Source: an uncultured Candidatus Saccharibacteria bacterium (GTDB taxonomy: Bacteria; Patescibacteriota; Minisyncoccia; Sungbacterales; JACQCQ01). From it: 64,000 nt of DNA. The notes under the pieces are model-generated. The model was not told where the DNA came from. It made no database searches and saw only the letters and a list, made by a program, of their open reading frames with translations. The position numbers and the translations under genes are program-made. Shown piece after piece: positions 24,300 to 60,130 of the stretch. Location: the NCBI GenBank assembly GCA_964494945.1, contig CAZBTX010000004.1, positions 27,385-91,384 of the forward strand. The letters run 5' to 3'. The stretch's first letter is position 1, and every line of letters starts with the position of its first letter.

Positions 24300-24333
24300 A
24301 ACATTCTCATATTCTCAAGAATATGAGAATGTT
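24300..24333. promoter_or_regulatory. 34-bp perfect palindrome AACATTCTCATATTCT-CA-AGAATATGAGAATGTT 10 bp upstream of oxidoreductase ATG
   Basis: This was checked base by base. The arms are 16 bp with a 2-bp centre. Confidence 0.8.
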
Positions 24334-24342
24334 TTGAACTCA

Positions 24343-25826: not shown

Positions 25827-26555
25827 ATGGAAATACTCGCAGTCATTCCCGCCAGAGGCGGGTCAAAGGGCATACCGCGGAAAAATATTAAACTGCTTTG
25901 CGGCAAGCCATTGATTGCTTGGACGATTGAGGAAGCAAAAAAGTCAAAGCATTTGACTCGCGTTATCGTTTCCACCGACGACGAAGAGATCGCGGAAGTT
26001 GCGAAACGATACGGCGCGGAAGTGCCTTTTATGCGTCCTCCCGAAATTTCCGGCGATTTGGCTACCGATGTAGAATTTCTGACGCACGCGCTGGATTTTT
26101 TGAAAGAAAAAGAAAATTACGAACCGGAAATAATTTTGCGTTTGCCGCCGACCTCACCCCTCCGCACGGCGGCGCATATTGATGAAGGCATAGAAGTTTT
26201 ATTAAAAAATCCCGAGGCTGACGCCTCGCGGCCCATGACGGAGGCTCCCAAGCATCCATATAAAATGTGGCGCGTTTCTGCGGAAGATGAGCGTTTTGTG
26301 GAGCCGTTTCTGCCAAAGTCATTTACTCAAATAGACGAACCGTATAACTTGCCGCGCCAGGCCTTGCCGAAAGCCCATATTCATACGGGTGCTATGGATG
26401 TGATGCGGCTTCGCACCGTACGTGAAATGAAATCAACCTCGGGCAAAAAGCTCGCGTATTTTTTCATGAAGCCGGAAGATTCCATAAATATTGATACGCC
26501 GGTTGATTTTGAATTGGCCGAGATCCTGCTGAAAAAGAGGATCGCGCAAGGGTAA
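25827..26555 (+). CDS. CMP-nonulosonic acid synthetase (acylneuraminate cytidylyltransferase family, NeuA/PseF/LegF-like)
   Basis: It carries ILAVIPARGGSKGIPRKN. Confidence 0.75.
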   Translation: MEILAVIPARGGSKGIPRKNIKLLCGKPLIAWTIEEAKKSKHLTRVIVSTDDEEIAEVAKRYGAEVPFMRPPEISGDLATDVEFLTHALDFLKEKENYEPEIILRLPPTSPLRTAAHIDEGIEVLLKNPEADASRPMTEAPKHPYKMWRVSAEDERFVEPFLPKSFTQIDEPYNLPRQALPKAHIHTGAMDVMRLRTVREMKSTSGKKLAYFFMKPEDSINIDTPVDFELAEILLKKRIAQG

Positions 26556-28965: not shown

Positions 28966-30855
28966 ATGTGTGGAATCGTAGGCATCAGAGATCCTCGCGG
29001 CGTCCCCTCGGACGTTCTCCAGGCAATGACGCGCGAGCTCGTGCACCGCGGACCCGACGACGAGGGTTTCCTCTATCTCGATAAGGCGAAAGGCGAGTAT
29101 GTCGACGCGCCGAGTGCGCATGCGACCCTTGGCTTCCGGTTCCGGCGGCTCTCCATCGTTGACCTCGGCGCGACCGGCCACCAGCCGATGCTGACACCGG
29201 ACCGCGGCGCGGCGATCATCTTCAACGGCGAGATTTACAATTACCTCGAGCTCCGCGCGGAATTGGAGGCACGCGGTGTGCACTTCCGGGGACGCAGCGA
29301 CTCCGAAGTGATCCTCCACCTGCTCGCCCTTGAAGGTCTGGCCGCTCTCCCGCGCCTCAACGGGATGTTCGCCCTTGCCTTCCATGACCGTCGCACGGGG
29401 ACGCTAATCCTCGCGCGCGACCACGTCGGTATTAAACCGCTCTACTGGCTCCGCGAAGGCCCCGCGATTGTCTGGGCGAGCGAGCCAAAGGCCTTTCTCC
29501 ACTACCCCTCGTTCCGACCAGATGTCAACCGCGAGCGCCTCCACGAATTTTTCCTTTTCCGCCACGTCATTGGACCCGACACGCTTCTCCGCGGCGTGCA
29601 CTCGGTGGAGCCGGGAGGGTACGTACTTATTCGCGACGGCGAAGCGCGGGAAGTGCGCTGGTACAAGCCGCCACCGCACGAGCCCGAGCCATTAACGGAG
29701 GACGAGGCGGCGGCGCGCGTTGATGCCGCCGTCGGCGAAAGCGTGAAGGCGCAGCTCATGAGCGACGTGAAAGTCGGCTGTCAATTGTCCGGCGGTATTG
29801 ATTCCACCCTCATTTCCTGGTGGGCCGCGCGCCATCACGGCTCGCTTTTTGACTCCTTCTCCGTAAGCTTCGACGACCCGCGTTACGACGAGAGTCCGTT
29901 CATAGATGCCGTCGTCGCTAAGTTAGGGCTCGTCGGTCACACTACGCGCCTTGCCACTGATGAAATGGCGGCCTCGCTCCTCGACGCGGCGTGGCATCAC
30001 GATTTCCCCATCAGCCACCCCAACGCTCTCGGTATTTACGCGCTCGCTCGCGAGGCCCGCCGCCACCACGTAACTGTACTTCTCAGTGGCGAGGGCGCGG
30101 ACGAGGTGTTCGGCGGATACGCGCACTACAACCGCGCCGCGTGGCTCGCGCGCCTCAATGCTCTACCCGGCGGCCTCGAACTCGCCCGGTGCCGCGGCCT
30201 CGCGCGCGCGGGCGACCTCGCTCGGGCACTCGTTCTGCTCTCCGCTATCTACGACCCCAAAGTGGTGCGCGAGGCCTGTCCATGGTTCGACGGCGAGCAG
30301 GCACTCCGCGAGCGTCTTGAGCTTTGGGCGGCGACGCCGGAGACGGACGCCCTCGAGCACCTCATGGCCTATGAGCGGCGCGCGTACATGGAGGAATTAC
30401 TCCACCGCCAGGACCGCATGTCGATGACGCACTCTATCGAGAACCGCGTGCCGTACCTCGATCCGCGCGTCCTCGCACTCGCCCGGCGTCTCCCCACGCG
30501 CCTCAAGGTTGCCGTCGGGTTGTTCCCACGCCGCGGCACAGCACCCCGCGCCACGAAGCCGATACTTAAGCGCCTCGTCGCGAACCGCTTCGGCGATAAT
30601 TTCGCCTACCGCGCGAAGTCCGGCTTCGCGTTACCGCTCCGCGCGATCTTCGTAGCACCCGCGTTCGAGGCGACGTGGCCGGCGATCCGCGACGCTGTCG
30701 TCGCACTCTCTGTCGCGGAGGCGCCCGCACTCGATGCCTTGAAGGAGCAGGCACTCCGCGAGGGCGGCGACGCGGCGAAGCTTCTATGGACATTTACAGC
30801 GCTCGGCGCGTGGTGGCGCGGCATCTCGCGCGTAGGCGCGGTATTACGGACGTGA
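28966..30855 (+). CDS. asnB: Asparagine synthase (glutamine-hydrolysing) family amidotransferase, compositionally foreign (~65-70% GC)
   Basis: It has the MCGIVGI start and the SGGIDS PP-loop. Many spurious ORFs overlap it on both strands, as expected for a high-GC segment. Confidence 0.8.
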   Translation: MCGIVGIRDPRGVPSDVLQAMTRELVHRGPDDEGFLYLDKAKGEYVDAPSAHATLGFRFRRLSIVDLGATGHQPMLTPDRGAAIIFNGEIYNYLELRAELEARGVHFRGRSDSEVILHLLALEGLAALPRLNGMFALAFHDRRTGTLILARDHVGIKPLYWLREGPAIVWASEPKAFLHYPSFRPDVNRERLHEFFLFRHVIGPDTLLRGVHSVEPGGYVLIRDGEAREVRWYKPPPHEPEPLTEDEAAARVDAAVGESVKAQLMSDVKVGCQLSGGIDSTLISWWAARHHGSLFDSFSVSFDDPRYDESPFIDAVVAKLGLVGHTTRLATDEMAASLLDAAWHHDFPISHPNALGIYALAREARRHHVTVLLSGEGADEVFGGYAHYNRAAWLARLNALPGGLELARCRGLARAGDLARALVLLSAIYDPKVVREACPWFDGEQALRERLELWAATPETDALEHLMAYERRAYMEELLHRQDRMSMTHSIENRVPYLDPRVLALARRLPTRLKVAVGLFPRRGTAPRATKPILKRLVANRFGDNFAYRAKSGFALPLRAIFVAPAFEATWPAIRDAVVALSVAEAPALDALKEQALREGGDAAKLLWTFTALGAWWRGISRVGAVLRT

Positions 30856-31049
30856 TGCGGCTTCGCACCATACGTGAAATGAGATCCACCTCGGGCAGAA
30901 AACTCACGTATTTTTTAATGAAGCTCGAGGATTCCATAAATATAGACAATCCGATTGATTTTGAGTTGGCAGGGCTTATTCTGCGGCGTCGCCTCGGGGA
31001 CGCATCCTGGAAAACCGGGAGGTCTCTTTTGCGGTTCTATAAAATATAG
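30847..31049 (+). pseudogene. Remnant 3' fragment of a second cytidylyltransferase gene (~85% nt identity to 26395-26540)
   Basis: The remnant translates as DVMRLRTIREMRSTSGRKLTYFLMKLEDSINIDNPIDFELA. This parallels the intact gene's DVMRLRTVREMKSTSGKKLAYFFMKPEDSINIDTPVDFELA. Confidence 0.75.
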
Positions 31050-39874: not shown

Positions 39875-39972
39875 GCCGATTCCCACTATAGAAACACCCC
39901 CGCTAGCGGGGGTGTTTCTATATACGAGGGTTCATAAATTAGCTATATTTAAGTTAATCTAGTTGGTTTTTT

Positions 39973-40094
39973 AACGGCATGATCCCGTTAGAAGCCGCGA
40001 TTGCGAAAGATAGGTTAAAAGTATGTCAATTTTTTCATTTAATATTCTATAAAGCAGAAAATGCGTTTGATCGTGATCTGCTTCTAACGGGATG
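39973..40094. repeat. Palindromic TIR element copy A (ATCCCGTTAGAAGC ... GCTTCTAACGGGAT), hpf ATG inside right arm
   Basis: The 14-bp perfect terminal inverted repeats at 39982-39995 and 40080-40093 were verified. Confidence 0.75.
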
Positions 40095-40505
40095 AGATAC
40101 CAAATTCGTTATACAAAAGTTGACCCCTCGCCGGCGCTCACCGACTATATTGAGAAAAAAATTGTTGATGCCCTACAAAGATTGATCGGCGGGACGGGAG
40201 AGACGCCTTGGCAGATCTTGATAGAAGTGGGGCGCGATACCCTGCATCACAAAAAGGGCAATGTTTGGTTTGCTGAAGTATCCGGCGCCGGTCCTTATGG
40301 GCCACTCCGCGTTCGGGCCGAGGGGTCCGATATACATGAAGCGATTGATATTGCCGAAGACGACTTAAAGGCCAACCTTTCCAAATTAAAAGGCAGAATT
40401 GTCGCTAAGGGTCTGCGTGCCGCGCGCCGGGTGAAACGCATTATGCGCCTTTCGCGCTTCGCTCGTTTTTTCCGCAAAGGCAGAATTCGCGAAGAGGGCA
40501 TCTAA
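40092..40505 (+). CDS. hpf: Ribosome hibernation promoting factor / RaiA (S30EA family)
   Basis: It carries ALTDYIEKK and HEAIDIAEDDL..L.KLK, typical of the S30EA family. Confidence 0.65.
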   Translation: MRYQIRYTKVDPSPALTDYIEKKIVDALQRLIGGTGETPWQILIEVGRDTLHHKKGNVWFAEVSGAGPYGPLRVRAEGSDIHEAIDIAEDDLKANLSKLKGRIVAKGLRAARRVKRIMRLSRFARFFRKGRIREEGI

Positions 40506-40551
40506 TTTCCATATTCTTATAAAATTGCGTATCATGCCCTAATGAAAGGAG

Positions 40552-40974
40552 GTGGTTTTCGTGCCTTCCATACCGCTCGTTAACAAGTTCCAGCCGCTTA
40601 CCGAAGCGCCGCCGGAAGTTGCAGCGCTTCTTGACCGCACCAAAAGCACAAGTCATGCAAGGGCGCTGTTGTCGCTTCTCATTCAGTCCCCGGCGGGGAT
40701 TCAGATCGGCACATGCACAGGGGGCGCAGATGTAATCAAACTTCAGAAGTGCATCTCTTGGCTTGGTCGGGAGCCGGGAGCATTTCTTCGCTGGGGCGAA
40801 CTGCTTTCGGCAAAAAACGGGATTCGCTATCTTCTTCAGAGTGCCGGTCTCCAGTACGGCATCTGGTGCTCATGCCCCGACTGGCTTGGCGGACGAAGAA
40901 AAGGAAACTACCGCGGCGGGGAAGTTCCAGTTTCCGTAGGTCTTGTCGACAAACAGAAACCAGTAACAGAGTGA
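40552..40974 (+). CDS. Hypothetical protein
   Basis: It is an ORF only, with a terminator immediately downstream. Confidence 0.3.
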   Translation: MVFVPSIPLVNKFQPLTEAPPEVAALLDRTKSTSHARALLSLLIQSPAGIQIGTCTGGADVIKLQKCISWLGREPGAFLRWGELLSAKNGIRYLLQSAGLQYGIWCSCPDWLGGRRKGNYRGGEVPVSVGLVDKQKPVTE

Positions 40975-40975
40975 C

Positions 40976-41012
40976 CGGGGCCGCATTCTTCGGGGTGCGG
41001 CCGCTTTTTTTA
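40976..41012 (+). terminator. Rho-independent terminator (GGCCGCA-loop-TGCGGCC + T8)
   Basis: It is a hairpin followed by GCTTTTTTTA. Confidence 0.7.
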
Positions 41013-41141
41013 TTTAAACTTTATGACTATTATTGGTTTTTGTCATAGCAAAGTTCGTGAATAGAAAATCTGAATTATAAAATGCGAAATTTATTTTAAA
41101 GTTGTCAAGAATATTCACATTGCCATCGTTGGTTTTTCGTC

Positions 41142-41163
41142 AAGTTTGAGTTATCCACAGTTG
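41142..41163. promoter_or_regulatory. Second copy of DnaA-box-containing motif AAGTTTGAGTTATCCACAGTTG
   Basis: It was read from the sequence. Confidence 0.5.
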
Positions 41164-41312
41164 AAGTTTTACGGGATTCTTGCAAAAATGAGAGCAGGAG
41201 TGAAAAAGAACGCTGAGACACTTAACGAAAGCGTTTAACATAAGGAAGTGCGAAACCAACGTCGTTCGGCGCGGTACGCGCTACCCCATGCGGAACGTTT
41301 CTCGAAAAGGAA

Positions 41313-41687
41313 ATGCATAAGTCGCTTCATATCCTCGCGGACCTCTATAACTGTCGCGGGGACGAAAAATATCTCACAAAGGTAAGCACGGTAAAAAAGA
41401 AAGTTTTGCAGATGATAAAGCGGGCCGGCTTTAAAGTTGTGGCTTCGCGTTTTCATAAATTTCCACCCGGCTCCAACGCGACCGAAGGCGGTATTACGGG
41501 CGTTATCGTGGTTTCGGAGTCGCACTTGACCATCCATACCTGGCCGGAAAAACATTACGTCAATTTTGACGTGTTCTTTTGCAGTTATTCGCGGGACAAC
41601 TCGCATAAGACCAGAAACATCTTCCGCGAATTTTCCTCGCTCTATAAACCAAAAAAACTTCGTAAGCGTGAAGTTTGGAGGGATTAA
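41313..41687 (+). CDS. speH: S-adenosylmethionine decarboxylase proenzyme, small bacterial/archaeal type
   Basis: It has the ESHLTIHTWPE signature with the pyruvoyl-precursor Ser. Confidence 0.75.
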   Translation: MHKSLHILADLYNCRGDEKYLTKVSTVKKKVLQMIKRAGFKVVASRFHKFPPGSNATEGGITGVIVVSESHLTIHTWPEKHYVNFDVFFCSYSRDNSHKTRNIFREFSSLYKPKKLRKREVWRD

Positions 41688-41822
41688 TCCCGTTAGAGGT
41701 CAGGTTTGCTCCGCGCAAACCGGCGGCAACCAAAACGGTTCCATAATAAGTAGTTTTAGAAAGGGTACTCGGTATTTCAAAGCAAGTTAACTTTCGAGGT
41801 TAGTTGCCTACCTCTAACGGGA
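41688..41822. repeat. Palindromic TIR element copy C (TCCCGTTAGAGG ... CCTCTAACGGGA) between speH and secA
   Basis: The 12-bp perfect terminal inverted repeats were verified. It is a variant of the 39982 and 49318 element. Confidence 0.7.
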
Positions 41823-41909
41823 CTAACCCAAGGCTCTAAAATAGCCCCGATGAGCCGGGGTCGTTTTTGGCTTCCTATAATCGCTTTTTTGTCTTAGAAT
41901 AATCCAGTT

Positions 41910-44642
41910 ATGGCCCTATTGGCTAAGATTTTCGGAGACGCCAATGAGCGCGCGGTGCGTGAGTATTTACCTATGGTGGCGGGTATCAACGCGCTTGAGC
42001 CGGAATTTAAAAAGTTATCGGAGGAGAATTTAAAAGCAAAAACAGCCGAATTCAAAGAGCGGATGAGCAAAGGAGAAACGTTGGATGACCTGCTCCCGGA
42101 GGCCTTTGCGACCGTTCGCGAAGCGTCCCAAAGAACGCTCGGCCAGCGGCATTTTGACGTGCAGTTAATGGGCGGTATGGCTTTGCACCAAGGAAAAATT
42201 TCAGAGATGAGGACAGGCGAAGGCAAAACTCTGGTAGCCACACTACCCGCGTATCTGAACGCGCTATTGAGTAAGGGAGTTCATATCGTAACGGTTAACG
42301 ACTATTTGGCGCGGAGAGACGCCGTGTGGATGGGGCAGATTCATCATGCCTTGGGGCTGACAGTGGGAGTATTGAATCATGAGGCGTCGTATATTTATGA
42401 TCCAACACACGAAAATCCAAATGATCAAAACAACTTAGACAAAACACGGGATACATTAGGAGCATTTAAGGTGGTGCATGAATTTTTGCGTCCCGTGACG
42501 CGCCGCGAAGCGTATGAGGCCGACATAACTTACGGCACCAATAATGAATACGGTTTTGATTATCTTCGCGACAACATGGTGTATGCAACGGCCCAACTCT
42601 CTCAAAGAGAGCACAATTTCGCCATCATTGACGAGGTGGACTCCATTTTAATAGATGAAGCCAGAACCCCGCTGATAATTTCGGCTCCCGATGAGGAATC
42701 CGGCGAGCTTTACAAGACCTTTTCGCAATTTGTGCCGCGCCTTTCAGCGCCCGACGACTTCACGATTGACGAAAAACTAAAAGCCGTGGCTATTACAGAG
42801 CATGGCATTGATAAGGTGGAGGGCATCATCGGCAAGAAACTTTACGAAGGCGGGCACGAAGCCGAGTCCATTAAATTAGTGCATCATCTAGAGCAAGCCC
42901 TAAGAGCTCATTCTTTGTATTTAAGAGATAGGGATTATGTGGTTAAGGATGGCGAGGTAATTATTGTTGACGAATTTACGGGGCGTTTAATGCCGGGCAG
43001 GCGCTGGTCGGAGGGATTGCATCAAGCGATTGAAGCCAAAGAGGGAGTTCAAATTCAGCGCGAATCAAAGACACTTGCCACTATTACCTTCCAGAATTAT
43101 TTCCGCATGTACCCGAAGTTAGCTGGTATGACGGGAACGGCCGCGACCAACGCCGAAGAATTTCATAAGGTTTATAAATTGGAAGTTGTTTCCGTTCTCA
43201 CTCACCGTCCTAATGTCCGCGAGGACAGGTCGGACCTGGTATTTCGCACCGAGAAGGGGAAATTCACAGCGCTGGCTCGAGAAATAAAACGTCTTAATCA
43301 AATTGAGGCGTCGGTGTTAATCGGCACTGTTTCCATTGAAAAGAACGAGCGGCTTTCCGAGATATTAAAGCGTGAAGGCGTGCCGCATAGGGTGTTAAAC
43401 GCCAAGAATCATGAAGAGGAAGCGGCGATTATCGCGCAAGCCGGGCGCAAGGGAGCTGTCACGGTTGCCACAAACTTAGCCGGTAGAGGTGTGGACATAA
43501 TTTTAGGCGGTAATCCACCAACCGCTGAAGAAGCGGAATTGGTAAAACAAAATGGGGGATTGCATGTTTTCGGCACGGAGCGGCACGAAGCGCGCCGCAT
43601 TGATAACCAGTTAAGAGGCCGCTCCGGACGCCAAGGCGACCCCGGCGTTACTCAATTTTATCTTTCACTGGAAGACGACCTAATGCGCGTTTTCGGCTCT
43701 TCACGCATTAAAAGCATGATGGAAAGTTTCGGCATTCCCGAAGACGAGCCGATAGAAAATCGCATGGTCTCTAAAGCCATTGAATCGGCCCAGGCCAAAA
43801 TTGAAGGATTCCATTTTGACGCCCGGAAGCATGTCTTGGAATACGACGACGTTATGAATAAACAGCGCGAAGCGATTTACAGAATGCGGAAATCCATTTT
43901 AGGTACAGCCGAAAATCCCGCGGTGCTACAGGTTCAAGTGCATGTAATGATACGCGACGAGGCATCAGCCATTGCCGAGGCACATGCAGCTGCTGAAAAT
44001 TTGGAAGAAGGCATTGATGAATTGAAGAAATTTATTGCCGCGTTCATCCCCGGCGATTTTGAGAACGAAGACCTTAAAAAACTGGATGAGGCCAAGAATC
44101 TCGGACGAGAAGGCGCGCGCGAGTTTTTGCAAGAAATAGTCGCCGAAATTTTGACGGCGGCGTATACGAGAAGAGAGAAGGATTTGGGTGAGCCGTTCTC
44201 GCAAGCGGTGCGAACGGTGATGCTCCAAACCATTGATTTTATTTGGATAGACCATCTGACGGAAATGGACCATTTACGCGATTCGGTGCGACTCCGCGCC
44301 TACGGCCAGCGCGACCCGTTGGTGGAATATAAAAATGAATCGGTGCGACTCTTTAGATTATTGCAAGCCAGCATCCGCCAATATTCCATCCAAACAATAT
44401 TTAGGGTGGGGGAGAAAACAGGAAACAGAACACAGGACACAGCGCGTCAAGAACCCAACTTGATTTTCCAATCGGCTAAAGATGAATCAAATTCCGCCGG
44501 CGCTAAAGTATATACGCCGTCAGCCAAAAAAGAACCCGGCCGCAACGACCCCTGCCCGTGTGGAGCGGTCAATCCCGCGACAGGGGAAGTATATAAATGG
44601 AAGAAATGTGGCATGGTTAATGCCTCATATCATAAGAAGTGA
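41910..44642 (+). CDS. secA: Preprotein translocase ATPase SecA
   Basis: It has the DEAD-like motor motifs and the C-terminal zinc motif CPCG...C. The protein is 910 aa. Confidence 0.9.
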   Translation: MALLAKIFGDANERAVREYLPMVAGINALEPEFKKLSEENLKAKTAEFKERMSKGETLDDLLPEAFATVREASQRTLGQRHFDVQLMGGMALHQGKISEMRTGEGKTLVATLPAYLNALLSKGVHIVTVNDYLARRDAVWMGQIHHALGLTVGVLNHEASYIYDPTHENPNDQNNLDKTRDTLGAFKVVHEFLRPVTRREAYEADITYGTNNEYGFDYLRDNMVYATAQLSQREHNFAIIDEVDSILIDEARTPLIISAPDEESGELYKTFSQFVPRLSAPDDFTIDEKLKAVAITEHGIDKVEGIIGKKLYEGGHEAESIKLVHHLEQALRAHSLYLRDRDYVVKDGEVIIVDEFTGRLMPGRRWSEGLHQAIEAKEGVQIQRESKTLATITFQNYFRMYPKLAGMTGTAATNAEEFHKVYKLEVVSVLTHRPNVREDRSDLVFRTEKGKFTALAREIKRLNQIEASVLIGTVSIEKNERLSEILKREGVPHRVLNAKNHEEEAAIIAQAGRKGAVTVATNLAGRGVDIILGGNPPTAEEAELVKQNGGLHVFGTERHEARRIDNQLRGRSGRQGDPGVTQFYLSLEDDLMRVFGSSRIKSMMESFGIPEDEPIENRMVSKAIESAQAKIEGFHFDARKHVLEYDDVMNKQREAIYRMRKSILGTAENPAVLQVQVHVMIRDEASAIAEAHAAAENLEEGIDELKKFIAAFIPGDFENEDLKKLDEAKNLGREGAREFLQEIVAEILTAAYTRREKDLGEPFSQAVRTVMLQTIDFIWIDHLTEMDHLRDSVRLRAYGQRDPLVEYKNESVRLFRLLQASIRQYSIQTIFRVGEKTGNRTQDTARQEPNLIFQSAKDESNSAGAKVYTPSAKKEPGRNDPCPCGAVNPATGEVYKWKKCGMVNASYHKK

Positions 44643-44718
44643 AGCGGAGTCCATCCGTAGCGAAGCGTAGGAGGATGGAAGCGGGAAGAAATATAAAAAG
44701 TGTCACGGAACGTAAAAT

Positions 44719-44752
44719 AACATTCCAACATTCTGCAGAATGTTGGAATGTT
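44719..44752. promoter_or_regulatory. 34-bp perfect palindrome AACATTCCAACATTCTG/CAGAATGTTGGAATGTT
   Basis: It was verified. It shares its AACATTC...GAATGTT ends with the 24300 palindrome. Confidence 0.75.
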
Positions 44753-44805
44753 TAGGGGTTTATCTTAAGCGAATTGAGGTGTGGCGCAGAGATATAGAGC
44801 AATAA

Positions 44806-44814
44806 TGGTATTAT
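44806..44814 (+). promoter_or_regulatory. Extended -10 TGGTATTAT 7 nt upstream of ATG (possible leaderless transcript)
   Basis: It matches a sequence motif. The same TGGTATAAT is seen at 48926. Confidence 0.3.
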
Positions 44815-44820
44815 CCTTAT

Positions 44821-45168
44821 ATGACTATGGAAGTTGTTAGAGAGCTGATATCGCGCGAGAAACTTAAAAGTATTGCCGAGAATCAATTTGGTAATTTGGT
44901 GAAGGCCGTAGTTGACATAGAACAAGAGATTATGGTCATTGGCGGGGAATTGCACGCGGATGAAGAAGCCGTATTGATTGAGCAAGGATCAAATCAGCGA
45001 AATCTTTGGGGCATTAATCTCTATCCCGCCAAAACCGGAGACGATTTTATAGAGTTTGATTCAATGATCAATATACGTCCTTCGCAAAATAATAACTCAG
45101 GAAGCGTGGGAGATGCTGGAATACGGGAGAAAATACGCGCTATCATCGCAAAATTAATAAAGGATTAA
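44821..45168 (+). CDS. Hypothetical small protein
   Basis: It is an ORF only. Confidence 0.35.
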   Translation: MTMEVVRELISREKLKSIAENQFGNLVKAVVDIEQEIMVIGGELHADEEAVLIEQGSNQRNLWGINLYPAKTGDDFIEFDSMINIRPSQNNNSGSVGDAGIREKIRAIIAKLIKD

Positions 45169-45169
45169 T

Positions 45170-45502
45170 ATGCTGCATCAGCACGCAGAACTTTCAAGGG
45201 GCGGATGGCAGAAACTTTCTTTGGTGGAACAACTTGGGAATATCGGGAGCGAAGTTGGAAGAGCCGCGAAGTGGCAAGGGAAGGATGACGAGAACTTCAA
45301 AGCGTCTTTCGTGCGCGCGCTGGATTTATTAGATCTAACCATGCAGGATCCGCGCTGGAGCAAGAGCTTAAAAGAAATCGCTAGAGTCCGGGAGCTGTTG
45401 TGTGAAGCGGTATTCGGCGACAGAAAAAAATATAATACAACACTCGAGGACATCGATCGCTATTTTTACCAGTTTGCGCTAGCCGCACGTTTAAAAACTT
45501 AG
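45170..45502 (+). CDS. Hypothetical small helical protein
   Basis: It is an ORF only and sits 2 nt after the previous gene. Confidence 0.35.
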   Translation: MLHQHAELSRGGWQKLSLVEQLGNIGSEVGRAAKWQGKDDENFKASFVRALDLLDLTMQDPRWSKSLKEIARVRELLCEAVFGDRKKYNTTLEDIDRYFYQFALAARLKT

Positions 45503-46100
45503 TTTCATTTATATCGCATAACAAAAAGTGACAACCGATTCGCGCGTCTCAACACAAACCTAACCACTACCATACTCTAGAGTATGGTAGTGGAACAAAG
45601 TTGAGGGTTTTTTAATACAGAGGGGTATCGGAAGATGGTTGCGATAAAATAAATCTTTGTTTGACAGGATTTTGTGACTTTGCTATAAAGGATTTGCTAT
45701 GCAGATAGCAGTACGACAATTGAAGCATTGGTGGCATCCTCTTTGTGAGAGAGGCCAGTGAGTTGTCGTCCCAATAGGCGGAAAAGCTCCCCAAGAACGT
45801 TGGCCTCTTTCAAAAGAGGTTTTCGCGTTTTTAGGGAGCTTTTTGCGTATATCGCGCCAGGAGGTGCGAAAAACTAAGAAAGGGGGTGGTGCCGCATGCA
45901 CGGCCACGGCGGAAAGTAACTGGGGGTCGAGAAGTTTACTCAATCCATGAAAGGGGGTGAGAATAATGCACGGCTGGGGCAAGTAGGCAGTACGGAGGTG
46001 CGGACATCGGTCCGCACCTCCCCATAAATCCCCTATGATACAATTTATGTTTATTGAAACAAGCCGCAAAAAGATTTAGACTAAGCCAACTCTCAAAAAC

Positions 46101-48686
46101 ATGCCTAGTCCGAAGAAATTAAATGTACGTCTCCCCAGGAACGTAAAACCCGAGCGTTATCGTTTGGTACTTCACCCAGATCTAAAGCGTTTTACCTTCC
46201 AGTGCGAGGAGACGGCTTATTTAAACCTTGCGAAGCCGACAAGGGAAATTGTTTTGCATGGGAAGGATTTAAGAGTTTCTTCAGCGAAAGCCGCGCGGGG
46301 AAAAGAAGAAATTAAGGCAAAGAAAATTTCATATGACGCGAAAGCTGAAACTATAACGTTTTCGTTCCCCTGGGTGATTCCAAAGGGGAAAATCGAACTT
46401 CAATTGGAGTTTACGGGTACTTTAAATGATCAGATGCGCGGGTTTTATCGAAGCCGCTATGAGAAAGATGGTAAAGAGCATTGGCTTGCGACAACGCAAT
46501 TTGAAGCGACAGACGCGAGAAGGGCATTTCTCTGCGTTGATGAGCCGGAAGCAAAAGCGGTTTTTGATGTAACACTCATGACTCCGCGGGGGCATACGGC
46601 AATTTCCAACACGCTGCCCGTGCATGTGGCGGAACATGAATCCGGATACCAAATCGTGAAATTTGCCCCGACGCCAAAAATGTCAACCTATCTTCTGGTG
46701 TTCATCGTGGGCGATTTCGAATTTGTAGAAAAAAAGACCTCCCGCGGGACACTGGTGCGGGTGTTCGTAACCCCCGGGAAAAAACATCAGGCCATGTTCG
46801 CGCTTGATGTAGCCGCGAAAGTCCTTACGTTCTTTGAAAATTACTTTGCGATCAAGTATCCGTTGCCGGTGCTCGATATGATTGCCATTCCGGATTTCTC
46901 CGCCGGAGCGATGGAAAACTGGGGAGCGGTAACTTATCGGGAGTCCGCGATTTTATTCGATCCGAAACATTCTTCGACCGGGAACAAACAATGGATTGCC
47001 TTGGTAATCTCGCATGAGTTAGCCCATCAGTGGTTCGGGAATTTAGTAACGATGGAGTGGTGGACCCATCTCTGGTTGAATGAAGGATTTGCTTCTTATA
47101 TTGAATACTTGGCAGTGGATCATCTCTTCCCGGAATGGGATATCTGGACCCAATTTGTGGTGCTTGATCTTGGCGCAGCCCTGAATCTGGATGCTCTAAA
47201 AAATACCCACCCCATTGAAGTGGAAGTCCATCATCCTTCTGAAATCAGTGAGATATTCGATGCCGTCTCATACCAAAAGGGTGCGTCCATTATTCGCATG
47301 CTTGCCGATTATCTGGGAGAGAAAAGTTTCCGCGACGGACTCCGGCACTATCTGAAAAAGCATGCCTATGCCAACGCAAGGACCGAAGATCTTTGGCTTG
47401 CGCTGGAACACGTCACAAAAAAGCCCGTGCGGAAGATTATGGCGGCATGGACGGGAAAGGCAGGTTATCCCCTGGTAAGAGCCAAGGAAACGAAAAAGGG
47501 CGTCGTGATTTTGCAGTCGCGGTTTTTCTCAAGCGCTATTATTCGGAAACAGACGAAAGATTCTACGGTTTGGAATATTCCGATTAATTTTCTGAAAGAG
47601 AGCGCCTCAAAACCCGAACGATTTCTTTTGGATAAAAGAGAAAAGCCATTTCCGGTCCGTCTAGAAGACGGCGAATGGGTATCATTGAATGCTGGAGCCT
47701 CAGGCGTTTATCGGGTTGATTATCCTGCTCCGATGTTGCATCGCCTTCGCGAAGCCATCGAAGAAAGGTCGCTTTCAGCGCGGGAGCGCCTGGCGATCGG
47801 ATCGGATACTTTTTCGCTTGCGGAATCCAGCGAACTTCCGACAACCGAGGCGCTTCTTCTTGCTAAAGCATACAAGGAAGAAACGGATTACTCTGTCTGG
47901 TCGGATTTGGATTCACATTTTAGTTATTTGGAAGGCTTACTGGCGGATGAGAATTTTTTAGATTCGTATCGGACGTATCTTCGCGGTATATATCAGGCAA
48001 TTGCGAAGCGAATGGGTTGGGAGAAAAAGAAAGGCGAAAAACATACAGATTCGCTACTGCGAAGTTTAGCGCTGTGGGGGTTTGGCTCTCGCGGGGAAGA
48101 TGAAAATACAGTCAAAGAGGCGAAACGTAGGTTCCGTGAGCTGCAAAAAGGGAAGCATCTTGATCCCGATATTCGCGGAGTTGTCTATGGTTTAGCAGCT
48201 CAACATGGCGGAAAAGCCGAGTATGATTGGTTTGTGAAGAGACACCAAGCCGAGCGATTGAACGAAGAAAAAGTGCGCCTTCTCCGGACATTGGGAAGGT
48301 TTTCCAATACATCGCTTCTTCGTAAAACTCTTAATTACACATTTTCAAAACATGTGCGCACTCAAGACGATATCTTCGGAATTCAGAGTGTTGCCGGAAA
48401 TCCGAAAGGCAGAGGACTCGCCTGGAATTTTGTAAAAGCGAATTGGAAAAAAATTCTAGAGCGGCACGGAAGGGGCGGACACGTACTCCCGAATTTTGTG
48501 AAGGTCGCTCAAATTTTCAATACCAAAGAAAAAGCAAAGGACGTGCGAGAGTTCTTTCGAACACACGAAGCGCCCGGCGCTATTCGCGCGGTGGAGCAAA
48601 CTATTGAGCGCATTGAGTCAAAAGCAGATTGGCTTTCCCGCGACCGGACAAAAATTAGAGAATGGCTAAAAAATACAAAAATTTAG
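46101..48686 (+). CDS. pepN: Aminopeptidase N (M1 family zinc metallopeptidase)
   Basis: It carries GAMEN and HELAHQWFGN...E, the HEXXH-18-E motif. Confidence 0.9.
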   Translation: MPSPKKLNVRLPRNVKPERYRLVLHPDLKRFTFQCEETAYLNLAKPTREIVLHGKDLRVSSAKAARGKEEIKAKKISYDAKAETITFSFPWVIPKGKIELQLEFTGTLNDQMRGFYRSRYEKDGKEHWLATTQFEATDARRAFLCVDEPEAKAVFDVTLMTPRGHTAISNTLPVHVAEHESGYQIVKFAPTPKMSTYLLVFIVGDFEFVEKKTSRGTLVRVFVTPGKKHQAMFALDVAAKVLTFFENYFAIKYPLPVLDMIAIPDFSAGAMENWGAVTYRESAILFDPKHSSTGNKQWIALVISHELAHQWFGNLVTMEWWTHLWLNEGFASYIEYLAVDHLFPEWDIWTQFVVLDLGAALNLDALKNTHPIEVEVHHPSEISEIFDAVSYQKGASIIRMLADYLGEKSFRDGLRHYLKKHAYANARTEDLWLALEHVTKKPVRKIMAAWTGKAGYPLVRAKETKKGVVILQSRFFSSAIIRKQTKDSTVWNIPINFLKESASKPERFLLDKREKPFPVRLEDGEWVSLNAGASGVYRVDYPAPMLHRLREAIEERSLSARERLAIGSDTFSLAESSELPTTEALLLAKAYKEETDYSVWSDLDSHFSYLEGLLADENFLDSYRTYLRGIYQAIAKRMGWEKKKGEKHTDSLLRSLALWGFGSRGEDENTVKEAKRRFRELQKGKHLDPDIRGVVYGLAAQHGGKAEYDWFVKRHQAERLNEEKVRLLRTLGRFSNTSLLRKTLNYTFSKHVRTQDDIFGIQSVAGNPKGRGLAWNFVKANWKKILERHGRGGHVLPNFVKVAQIFNTKEKAKDVREFFRTHEAPGAIRAVEQTIERIESKADWLSRDRTKIREWLKNTKI

Positions 48687-48940
48687 CTACCTTTTCTCTC
48701 TGTATTGCACATCAAAAAACGCCACGGGGAGTAAGTGCCACAAACATCCTTACATACTTGAGAATATAAGGATGTTTGTGGAAATGAAATATAAAAATGC
48801 GGGGTGTTAGATACGGAGGAGCGTATAAAAAGAATTCAAAAATAGACCTGCGGATGTTTTTAAACCCCTGCCCCGCGATTCGCGGGGCAGGGGTTTTATT
48901 AGAACATACAATCCCACAATTTTTATGGTATAATTTGACA

Positions 48941-49070
48941 CTATTGACTTTTCATTTTGAATTCGATATAAGAAATGAAGTTTCCAGGAAGCTCTAACAG
49001 CGCGCCAACAACAGCACGTGGGTGACCGAAACATTGGTCATTAGTACCCACGTGCTGTTTTCTTTTTTCA
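48941..49070 (+). ncRNA. Candidate small RNA: extended -10 (TGGTATAAT 48926-48934) to rho-independent terminator (stem 49010-49059 + T-run)
   Basis: A promoter-like element and a strong terminator bracket about 130 nt. It holds only a 16-codon ORF. Confidence 0.35.
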
Positions 49071-49169
49071 AAAAATTATTTAGTACGTGATACACTTAGC
49101 GTCAGTCAAAACGGTTCTTCGTCAACTTTAACTTTCGTAAAAGGGGGGATGCGGATTAGTATTCAACAC

Positions 49170-49298
49170 ATGAATAAGTTAGTATTTTTATTAATAATGG
49201 CAGCGTTAGTATGGGGGGCTTATAAACTTGTCTCGCCTTACTTTTTTACCGACCAGGCGGGTGGGAAACTTAATGAATTCAAAGCCATGGGGCAATAA
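49170..49298 (+). CDS. Candidate 42-aa single-TM peptide
   Basis: The ORF reads MNKLVFLLIMAALVWGAYKLVSPYFFTDQAGGKLNEFKAMGQ, with a G-rich stretch upstream. Confidence 0.2.
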   Translation: MNKLVFLLIMAALVWGAYKLVSPYFFTDQAGGKLNEFKAMGQ

Positions 49299-49303
49299 TA
49301 ATT

Positions 49304-49433
49304 TTCTAACGGGGATGATCCCGTTAGAAGCCGCGATCGCGGAAGCGGGATTTAAAGTTAAAGGATGTTATATTCAAAGAAAATAATATGGGCAGATTTG
49401 CGCGTTTGATCGCGATCTGCTTCTAACGGGATG
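49304..49433. repeat. Palindromic TIR element copy B with extra half-site; CYTH gene ATG inside right arm
   Basis: The arms are ATCCCGTTAGAAGC at 49318-49331 and GCTTCTAACGGGAT at 49419-49432. An upstream half-site TTCTAACGGG lies at 49304-49313. Confidence 0.75.
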
Positions 49434-49949
49434 AAGGAAATAGAGCTAAAATTCAGGGTTGCCAATTTTAAGGAAATTATTCCCAAATTAAAGAAGTTGG
49501 GCGGTAAATGCGTTTGGCGTGGGATAGAAGAAAGTTATTTTTACGATACACCCGCCAAAACCTTAAAAAGAAAGCATCAAATGCTGCGACTACGTTCATG
49601 GGCGGAGCATAGCTATTCGCTGGCGTTAAAATTGGAGCCGGAGCATTCGCACAAACGTTATAAGGTAAGAGATGAATTTCAGATAATTGTGGATGACATT
49701 AATGCGACCCGCGAAATCTTAAAGCATTTGGGATTCGTGGAATATATAAGATACAAGAAATATCGCGAGCATTGGAAACTGCCCGGGGCCTTCATAGAAC
49801 TTGATACTCTAAAACATCTGCATTTCGTGGAAATTGAAGCGTCTAAGGATCGTATTAATCAATTAGCTCAAATTTTGCGATTGGACTGGGGCCAAACTAC
49901 AACTCAAGGTTACCTTTCAATTTTAAGGGATTTAAATAGGGACGCTTGA
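49431..49949 (+). CDS. CYTH-domain protein (class IV adenylate cyclase / triphosphatase-like)
   Basis: The N-terminal EIELKF motif (ExExK) is present. The protein is 172 aa. Confidence 0.6.
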   Translation: MKEIELKFRVANFKEIIPKLKKLGGKCVWRGIEESYFYDTPAKTLKRKHQMLRLRSWAEHSYSLALKLEPEHSHKRYKVRDEFQIIVDDINATREILKHLGFVEYIRYKKYREHWKLPGAFIELDTLKHLHFVEIEASKDRINQLAQILRLDWGQTTTQGYLSILRDLNRDA

Positions 49950-57057: not shown

Positions 57058-57137
57058 CGCTCTTCTGAATCTCAAAAAATTTTCTGAAACTCGGAAGAAC
57101 GGAGCGGCGGGACGAAGACTTCTCGCCCGCGCCGCTC
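57058..57137. repeat. 80-bp direct repeat copy 1 (identical to 58151-58230), immediately 3' of minus-strand gene
   Basis: The sequence CGCTCTTCTGAATCTCAAAAAATTTTCTGAAACTCGGAAGAACGGAGCGGCGGGACGAAGACTTCTCGCCCGCGCCGCTC is identical at both sites. Confidence 0.9.
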
Positions 57138-58150: not shown

Positions 58151-58230
58151 CGCTCTTCTGAATCTCAAAAAATTTTCTGAAACTCGGAAGAACGGAGCGG
58201 CGGGACGAAGACTTCTCGCCCGCGCCGCTC
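58151..58230. repeat. 80-bp direct repeat copy 2
   Basis: It is identical to 57058-57137. Confidence 0.9.
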
Positions 58231-60015: not shown

Positions 60016-60016
60016 A

Positions 60017-60130
60017 ATAGCGCATAGCGTGTAGGGGATAGCGTATGGCGTATAGCGTCCAGATAAATTGGGTGGCCGCGAACATGTTGCCGTCCTCTGT
60101 ACGCTATCCGCTATTCGCTATACGCTATTA
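60017..60130. promoter_or_regulatory. Composite inverted repeat built from ATAGCGT heptamers between sigma-like gene and downstream membrane-protein gene
   Basis: The left arm at 60025-60058 carries four ATAGCGT-like units. The right arm at 60101-60128 carries four ACGCTAT-like units. Confidence 0.6.

Follow-up and report, generated by a model that had tools for sequence, protein, structure and literature searches.

How does one and the same short palindrome come to stand at the first codon of unrelated bacterial genes? The question is raised by a 64,000-nucleotide stretch of an uncultured Candidatus Saccharibacteria bacterium assigned to the Sungbacterales (assembly GCA_964494945.1, contig CAZBTX010000004.1, positions 27,385 to 91,384), referred to here in its entirety as the window, in which three palindromic elements (copies A, B and C) lie at the start of hpf, at the start of a gene for a CYTH-domain protein and behind the stop codon of speH. 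The original prediction, made from the sequence alone, had considered three roles for them: a mobile element resembling a miniature inverted-repeat transposable element (MITE) and carrying a start codon, a long-stem regulatory structure in the 5' untranslated region (UTR), or the operator of a dimeric regulator. The analysis presented here argues with good confidence for a variant of the first role, in which the window elements are non-autonomous, MITE-like members of a palindromic mobile family that is spread through the Patescibacteria (candidate phyla radiation, CPR) and has a full-length form encoding a GIY-YIG nuclease. The anatomy of the elements, their distribution, their insertion polymorphism and the link between full-length copies and copies without an open reading frame (ORF) are directly established, together with a predicted fold for the nuclease. 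Full-text literature searches returned no description of the element, and the family is apparently undescribed.

Terminal repeats and rebuilt start codons in the window

Seven occurrences of the 9-mer CCCGTTAGA were counted in the window, where 0.42 would be expected and none of 100 shuffles reached seven; all are confined to copies A, B and C. Each copy is bounded by perfect 13-bp terminal inverted repeats (TCCCGTTAGARGY...RCYTCTAACGGGA), and these repeats, together with the enrichment of the 9-mer, bear out the original description of real palindromic elements. Copy A measures 110 bp (39983-40092), with its left repeat (TCCCGTTAGAAGC) at 39983-39995 and its right repeat (GCTTCTAACGGGA) at 40080-40092; copy B measures 113 bp (49319-49431), with repeats at 49319-49331 and 49419-49431; and copy C measures 135 bp (41688-41822), with repeats at 41688-41700 (TCCCGTTAGAGGT) and 41810-41822 (ACCTCTAACGGGA). 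All three are ORF-less and lie on the plus strand, a polarity given in copy C by a signature of TAC plus arm at its right end. Copies A and B belong to a subfamily designated type 1 and resemble each other at both ends, across about 56 nt at the left (79%) and across 33 nt at the right (97%).

The right arm had been said to provide the start codon of both hpf and the CYTH gene, and in both the last A of the repeat is indeed the A of the ATG. The hpf gene (HPF/RaiA, PF02482; 40092-40505, plus strand) starts with the ATG at 40092-40094 and the CYTH-domain gene (PF01928; 49431-49949, plus strand) with the ATG at 49431-49433, and both proteins begin sensibly at these codons. The notion that the element carries a start codon has to be narrowed, since only the A comes from the element. 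The TG belongs to a duplicated target, TGA, found on the right at 40093-40095 (copy A) and 49432-49434 (copy B) and on the left at 39980-39982 and 49316-49318, where it forms part of an original start codon plus A (39979-39982 and 49315-49318, plus strand). ATGA, the first four bases of hpf and of the CYTH gene, thus occurs a second time in copies A and B, directly ahead of the left repeat, a feature that the original prediction had missed. An insertion therefore preserves the old ATG at the left end of the element and creates a second one at the right end, where the final A of the repeat meets the TG that opens the duplicated target. Copy C was correctly placed at the end of speH: it begins directly after the TAA at 41685-41687 and precedes the speH terminator, with a left target duplication, TTAA (41684-41687), that takes in the stop codon and a right one, CTAA (41823-41826), that differs from it by one mismatch.

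Copies A and B are each preceded by a solitary half-site. The extra half-site reported at copy B is a perfect solo right arm (TTCTAACGGGG, 49304-49314, plus strand), which together with the left repeat yields a 10-bp hairpin with a 6-nt loop, and a decayed solo right arm upstream of copy A (TTTAACGGC, 39970-39978, plus strand) aligns with it (repeat family D3). The start first proposed for copy A, at 39973, lies too far upstream, because the decayed half-site precedes the true left repeat, which begins about 10 nt further downstream at 39983. The solo arms may be read as traces of an earlier insertion at the same ATG, and the half-sites of both copies are explained by the tandem or nested insertions at rebuilt ATG codons that are common in other genomes (loci L052, L086, L094 and L107). 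The same layout could be taken for paired operator half-sites of a dimeric DNA-binding regulator, given the close 10-6-10 palindrome at copy B and an arm sequence that is strictly conserved between distant lineages. The two half-sites of an element, however, are separated by about 90 bp and show covariation where they vary, tandem insertion explains the close palindrome, and in the full-length form described below these arms encode the tails of a protein. The operator proposal found no support and is hardly credible.

Start-codon insertions across the Patescibacteria

A scan of species-representative genomes for both arms with 84-114 nt between them recovered at least 120 stretches that match the paired-arm pattern, nearly all from metagenome-assembled genomes of Patescibacteria, with Paceibacteria, Kaiser-, Nomura-, Jorgensen-, Yanofsky-, Sung-, Lipton-, Levy- and Moranbacteria among the matches listed. 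Viral contigs contained no match either to the ORF-less pattern or to that of the full-length form. In a non-redundant set of 130 elements ATG abuts exactly one junction in 123, which can be oriented on this basis. A variant of the tip with C/G in place of T/A yields GTG starts (L130, L215). The genes behind the elements include topA, ssb, hpf, pilC, glyS, infC, dnaB, trpS, adk, smc, secE/G, gyrA, tpiA, pgk and genes for ribosomal proteins, with functions in replication, translation, secretion, glycolysis, pili and cell wall synthesis; because these downstream ORFs are genuine but functionally diverse, the elements do not constitute a regulon.

Direct repeats of 3-5 bp flank 103 of the 130 elements (4 bp in 79, 3 bp in 16 and 5 bp in 8), the commonest being TGAA. 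An ATG is kept 1-3 nt left of the left repeat in 100 of the 123 oriented elements, several of the losses consisting in a change to GTG, CTG or TTG, and in 93 of the 123 the opening 4-6 nt of the gene recur without change in the left flank, compared with a permutation mean of 32.6 and a maximum of 45. The few copies found away from start codons also show 4-bp duplications (TCAA, TAAG and TTGA). Such patterns are consistent with insertion at 5'-A|TGNA-3', with a target duplication of 3-5 bp (usually 4 bp), whereby the element would leave the original ATG on its left and the A of the right repeat would join the duplicated TG in rebuilding the host ATG. A minority of elements have the left flank ACTTG|TCCCG and not ATGNA (L015:1064, L028:4812, L103:6667 on the minus strand, and L126:4392), and this class may represent a TTG start or another type of junction.

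Insertion polymorphism is evident at orthologous sites, which were compared for hpf (copy A) and speH (copy C) in related Sungbacteria with conserved gene order. The start of hpf is occupied in the window and, by a decayed type-1 element, in L224; it is empty in L221 and L223, both of which retain the upstream terminator hairpin. The 3' end of speH is filled in the window by copy C and empty in L221, L223 and L224, the element-free site of L223 reading GATTAAGAAG. Polymorphic elements of this kind could serve as natural markers for strain-level population genetics. On the related contig L221, a reverse-transcriptase gene (RVT_1; L221:13110-14213) lies about 1.6 kb downstream of speH, beyond a major facilitator superfamily (MFS) gene on the opposite strand, in the place where the window has secA.

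Elements are also found within and at the end of coding sequences. At L128:12304-12374, a 71-nt GC-rich member lies within secA at an internal ATG, with a TGCG duplication and no stop codon, and adds 25 residues in frame (PVRSLARAEGASPQDLGEATSNGMR); a near-identical 71-nt member near the C-terminus of yidD (L066:1501-1571), with a 4-bp duplication, likewise adds 25 residues in frame (PVRSLSRDKSASPEDLGEATSNGID). This GC-rich subfamily seems specialised for being translated. At L066:1164-1273, an element with a TCAA duplication lies at the stop codon of rnpA, where the TAG in its left repeat (TCC CGT TAG) acts as the new stop and RnpA becomes two residues longer. The family is hence of some consequence for the annotation of CPR genomes, in which gene callers can be expected to misplace starts, to fuse ORFs and to overlook inserts of 25 residues in SecA and other essential proteins.

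The full-length form and its GIY-YIG nuclease

The same repeats enclose elements of 277-280 bp that are composed of one ORF. All six full-length loci checked at the DNA level conform to [A/G]TGAA|TCCCGTTAGAG...CTCTAACGGG[A/G]|TGAA, with the nuclease ORF starting at the left ATG, which is the original ATG of the host gene, and its TGA overlapping the rebuilt host start in five of the six, the exception being L113, where ATGG at the junction leaves no TGA. Since the ORF begins at the host's own ATG, the element makes use of the host promoter and start codon. The product, of 93-95 residues, matches the Pfam GIY-YIG family (PF01541, E = 1e-16). Altogether 2296 protein clusters match, and among the best 120 of the 2296, nearly all of them 93-95 residues long, the N-terminal MNPVRD and the C-terminal RFLSLTG, both encoded by the repeats, are near-invariant. 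The catalytic residues Y13, Y24, R32, H38, E70 and N84 are conserved in full-length relatives. In sequence, UPF0213 proteins (1zg2, E = 4e-11) and the nuclease domain of Slx1 are the closest among solved structures, and the predicted fold (predicted local distance difference test score, pLDDT, 87, with flexible tails) is also nearest to UPF0213 and Slx1, the latter at a template modelling (TM) score of ~0.6 and a root-mean-square deviation (rmsd) of ~3 Å.

Because full-length nuclease elements are bounded by the same repeats, the window copies can be identified as ORF-less, MITE-like derivatives. Full-length L217 and ORF-less L016 have exactly 13 nt in common on the left and 23 nt on the right, and across copies the exact match between the two forms reaches at most 17 nt at the left end and 23 nt at the right; beyond these termini, the interiors of ORF-less copies show no homology to the nuclease ORF. 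The ORF upstream of hpf in copy A (39979-40095, plus strand; 38 codons, MIPLEAA...LLLTG, stop) opens at the original ATG, crosses the whole element and closes at a TGA sharing bases with the hpf ATG (ATGA). It presents the full-length nuclease layout in miniature, and the nuclease-family protein P0043 begins with MIPLE in the identical frame. The corresponding ORF of copy B, from 49315, ends within the element (stop at 49384-49386), and the window copies as a whole encode no mobilising enzyme, their upstream ORFs being short and incidental.

In common with MITEs, the window copies have terminal repeats, a target duplication, a small non-coding size and dispersed, polymorphic relatives. The putative autonomous partner would be the 277-280-bp elements with identical termini, whose sole product is the GIY-YIG nuclease, a candidate transposase. 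The original suggestion of a MITE-like mobile element is upheld by the terminal repeats, the duplications, the 120 or more matching stretches, the empty orthologous sites and these full-length relatives. A more far-reaching proposal, to which we would give an even chance, is that the 277-280-bp form is an autonomous DNA transposon with a 94-residue SLX1-like GIY-YIG nuclease as its only protein, a start-codon parasite that would borrow promoter and ATG from the host, hand back a rebuilt ATG by way of the ATGA overlap, and have the window repeats as its non-autonomous offspring. In the full-length members the repeats are read as the tails of the nuclease (M-N-P-V-R-D at the N-terminus and F-L-S-L-T-G at the C-terminus), and its TGA overlaps the rebuilt ATG as ATGA, in a layout typical of translational coupling; the nuclease would drive mobility, possibly via a hairpin or cruciform of the repeats. 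The smallest insertion sequences known to us are about 700 bp long, and an autonomous transposon of this kind would define a new class of prokaryotic mobile element below that size. If the nuclease mobilises the elements, transposition would take place without a DDE, HUH, serine or tyrosine enzyme and within an element of less than 300 bp.

Several observations weigh against the main interpretation, that of a mobile family with a nuclease-encoding full-length form. The nuclease consists of a catalytic domain alone, without a separate DNA-binding domain, we know of no GIY-YIG protein that serves alone as a transposase, and no copy of the nuclease gene lies within the 64-kb window. The target duplication varies in length from 3 to 5 bp and is absent in 23 of the 130 elements. 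Gene starts account for 95% of the elements, compared with about 9% of the ATG[AG]A sites in these loci, and the repeats are symmetric, yet subfamily-specific internal features are gene-proximal in 97 of 99 elements (59:1 in type 1 and 38:1 in type 2, loci L007-L126). Among ORF-less copies, 73 of 100 upstream ORFs stop early, and a scan with the sigma-70 consensus found no promoter around any of the three window copies, a result that counts here for the regions upstream of copies A and B.

Some of these points would also fit elements that are mobile but carry the GIY-YIG ORF as a secondary passenger, a homing-endonuclease-like invader of an older palindromic element, with another enzyme mobilising both forms. 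A 94-residue catalytic domain without a DNA-binding module and a window devoid of nuclease copies would both be compatible with such a passenger, and small GIY-YIG genes without repeats exist free-standing beside tRNA genes. Against this, the ORF fills the full-length element, the repeats form part of the reading frame family-wide, ORF-less copies retain up to 23 nt of the full-length coding 3' end, and no other gene is consistently found near full-length elements at the loci checked. A passenger origin of the ORF is therefore considered unlikely.

Distant small GIY-YIG genes without terminal repeats were found at L121:5541-5783, L124:3002-3229, L191:1084-1335 and L112:3514-3723; they directly adjoin tRNA genes and appear to form a separate, free-standing subfamily. 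Matches to the nuclease family are also embedded in longer proteins, namely P0145 (600 aa), P0180 (655 aa, match at 212-295), P0143 and P0144, which may be read-through host fusions or in-frame insertions of the full-length element.

RNA structure, polarity and translation of the host gene

The inverted repeats necessarily give rise to structure in any transcript that contains them. In the folding check proposed with the original prediction, all three window copies fold better than shuffled sequence (z = -3.3, -4.8 and -4.3; -36 to -51 kcal/mol). The accompanying check for covariation gave a divided answer: the variable arm positions do covary, and no strand-specific bias of the kind expected from RNA, with G.U favoured over A.C, is present. 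At each of positions 1-13 of the repeats, 116 or more of the 123 relatives have a Watson-Crick pair. At arm position 11 there are 118 Watson-Crick pairs (AT 99, GC 19), two G.U and three A.C, and at position 13 there are 116 (CG 65, TA 51), with four G.U and three A.C; compensatory changes are also seen in the stem extension of type 1 and in the subterminal hairpin of type 2. Because mismatches in the arms are as often A.C as G.U, the pattern points to a palindrome maintained at the DNA level, or to concerted evolution, in preference to selection on the sense RNA, a comparison that rests on small numbers of mismatches. A hairpin in the transcript nevertheless follows unavoidably from the inverted repeats.

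These results bear directly on the second role originally envisaged, that of a long-stem 5'-UTR regulator, which is not borne out as their primary nature given the diversity of the downstream genes, the variable core, the lack of an Rfam match and the absence of a G.U over A.C bias. In its most explicit form, this role would make the elements a conserved cis-regulatory RNA, a riboswitch- or thermometer-like leader controlling a regulon of stress and signalling genes, and the position of two window copies upstream of hpf and the CYTH gene, together with the strong predicted stems, could be cited in its favour. No Rfam family was found on the elements, however, either across the whole window at gathering thresholds or at six element-bearing loci at E-value thresholds, the latter search also giving no intron match. 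The AT-rich core is not conserved, the downstream genes belong to all housekeeping classes, copies occur at stop codons and within ORFs too, target duplications are present and orthologous sites are empty. A regulatory leader of this sort is very unlikely.

How a host gene is translated behind an ORF-less copy is a separate matter. Ribosomes starting at the left ATG might open the stem over the right ATG, which is the explanation favoured here, or they might re-initiate. The upstream ORF reaches the right arm or the ATGA in 27 of 100 ORF-less copies, with a stop-start overlap in three of the 100, and tight translational coupling was ruled out as a general rule on the basis of the 27. Because most upstream ORFs end early, stop-start coupling cannot generally explain the translation of the host gene. 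The right arm has no Shine-Dalgarno sequence. A TANNNT box lies 12-15 nt upstream of the left ATG in 47 of 100 copies, at the spacing of leaderless promoters, and both Shine-Dalgarno-led and leaderless-looking starts are in use in the organism of the window. The fixed position of the elements by such -10-like boxes may offer a handle on leaderless translation in CPR bacteria, which cannot be cultured alone. The sigma-70 scan around the window copies returned only the terminator after copy C and the mini-hairpin of copy B, and an internal promoter in type-1 copies was rejected, the loosely conserved AT-rich box spotted by eye some 40 nt before the right ATG being too inconsistent.

Taken together with the stable stems (-36 to -51 kcal/mol, z -3.3 to -4.8), the compensatory changes in arm extensions and subterminal hairpin, the 97:2 polarity towards the gene, the left ATG kept in 100 of 123 elements (with several of its losses to GTG, CTG or TTG) and the TANNNT box at leaderless spacing in 47 of 100, this arrangement might indicate that the elements are kept by the host as a module for translation or transcript stability, in which ribosomes from the left ATG melt the stem and the hairpin tunes expression. 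Yet no function unites the genes concerned, orthologues in relatives lack the element, G.U does not exceed A.C and the ends of the upstream ORFs are scattered. Retention as a host module is compatible with mobility, but it leaves the target duplications and the coding insertions unexplained, and it is regarded as a possible, if rather doubtful, reading.

For the mobile family favoured here, the start-codon bias and the polarity carry a further implication. Neither is predicted by simple symmetric cut-and-paste, and selection or a directional mechanism is consequently needed. On the one hand, insertion may itself be directional and targeted, a possible route being copying from a donor whose flanks share ATGNA microhomology. 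On the other hand, selection may remove all other insertions, without any directional targeting.

Related systems and other repeats in the window

Among known small repeats, the Correia elements of Neisseria (CREE/NEMIS) offer a close parallel, since they share with the window copies a length of 100-150 bp, terminal inverted repeats, a short target duplication and the lack of an ORF, are dispersed in many copies near genes, and when co-transcribed form an RNA hairpin of their repeats. Correia elements, however, duplicate TA and are not bound to start codons, whereas the target here is A|TGNA and 95% of elements lie exactly on a rebuilt start codon, with fixed polarity to the gene. Furthermore, the putative autonomous partner is here a GIY-YIG nuclease and not a DDE transposase, and the arms are conserved over a superphylum rather than within one genus. 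The Rickettsia palindromic elements, small palindromes inserted in frame in coding genes with the addition of a peptide, resemble in layout the 71-nt subfamily seen in secA and yidD. In-frame coding insertions are nonetheless a minority in the present family and do not occur among the window copies, and the taxa are unrelated. To our knowledge, no mobilising protein has been described for the Rickettsia elements.

The GIY-YIG homing endonucleases, such as I-TevI and the products of the T4 seg genes, share with the full-length form the nature of a selfish GIY-YIG gene placed where it does little harm to the host. Homing endonucleases carry a further domain for DNA binding, are directed to a single long cognate site and return to the same locus through homology-directed repair; the element nuclease, by contrast, is a bare domain with a fold closer to UPF0213 and Slx1 than to I-TevI, and its element has terminal repeats, target duplications and insertion sites in many unrelated genes that share only A|TGNA. 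The partner enzyme is not a homing endonuclease of the classical kind, for it lacks a DNA-binding domain, a single cognate site and an intron. Its ORF lies between terminal repeats and shares bases with the start codon of the host gene, unlike a gene housed in an intron or intein or standing free between genes, and the six element-bearing loci searched gave no intron match in Rfam. The family might illustrate a new way of limiting the harm done by selfish DNA, by rebuilding the start codon and coupling translation, as opposed to the splicing used by introns and inteins.

SLX1 and the UPF0213 (YhbQ-like) proteins provide the best matches to the element nuclease in both sequence and fold. SLX1, however, serves the host in repair, together with SLX4, and belongs to no mobile element, and the function of UPF0213 is unknown. 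A preference for branched or hairpin DNA, as in an SLX1-type nuclease, would suit a palindromic element. The use of a GIY-YIG endonuclease for integration has a precedent in the Penelope-like retroelements (PMC8557442), which are eukaryotic and carry a reverse transcriptase, whereas the present elements have no reverse transcriptase and terminal repeats like those of DNA transposons. In CPR bacteria, GIY-YIG ORFs have been found in non-intron insertions of rRNA genes (PMC11270868), and these insertions may belong to the same family.

Other candidate systems were considered and rejected. In integron attC sites the order of the half-sites is the reverse of that seen here (RYYYAAC 5' and GTTRRRY 3', against GTTAGAA 5' and TTCTAAC 3'), and the neighbours of the elements are housekeeping genes and not cassettes. 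The REPIN/RAYT system, in which inverted REP doublets go with a single-copy RAYT (Y1 HUH) gene and duplicate no target, was set aside in view of the target duplications and of an associated protein that is an embedded GIY-YIG nuclease. A Xer/dif-like site and a hairpin element of IS200/IS605 type were both rejected from the sequence. Ribosomal bypass or shunting and RNase III processing to a leaderless mRNA were further candidate readings that were not adopted.

The window contains several further repeats. A perfect 80-nt direct repeat (57058-57137 and 58151-58230, 1093 bp apart) contains a GC-rich hairpin and lies between minus-strand genes; two 2-kb bins over 56-60 kb have a GC content of 53-54%, above most of the window. 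A 144-nt direct repeat with 82% identity (26388-26531 and 30840-30983, 4452 bp apart) probably represents coding sequence of paralogues. Similar 35-nt palindromes (AACATTCTCATATTCTCAAGAATATGAGAATGTTT-like) at 24300-24334 and 48742-48776 may represent a shared terminator or another small repeat. An inverted repeat at 60016-60129 has 30-nt arms (87% complementary) around a 54-nt spacer and is made up of TAGCG-like units.

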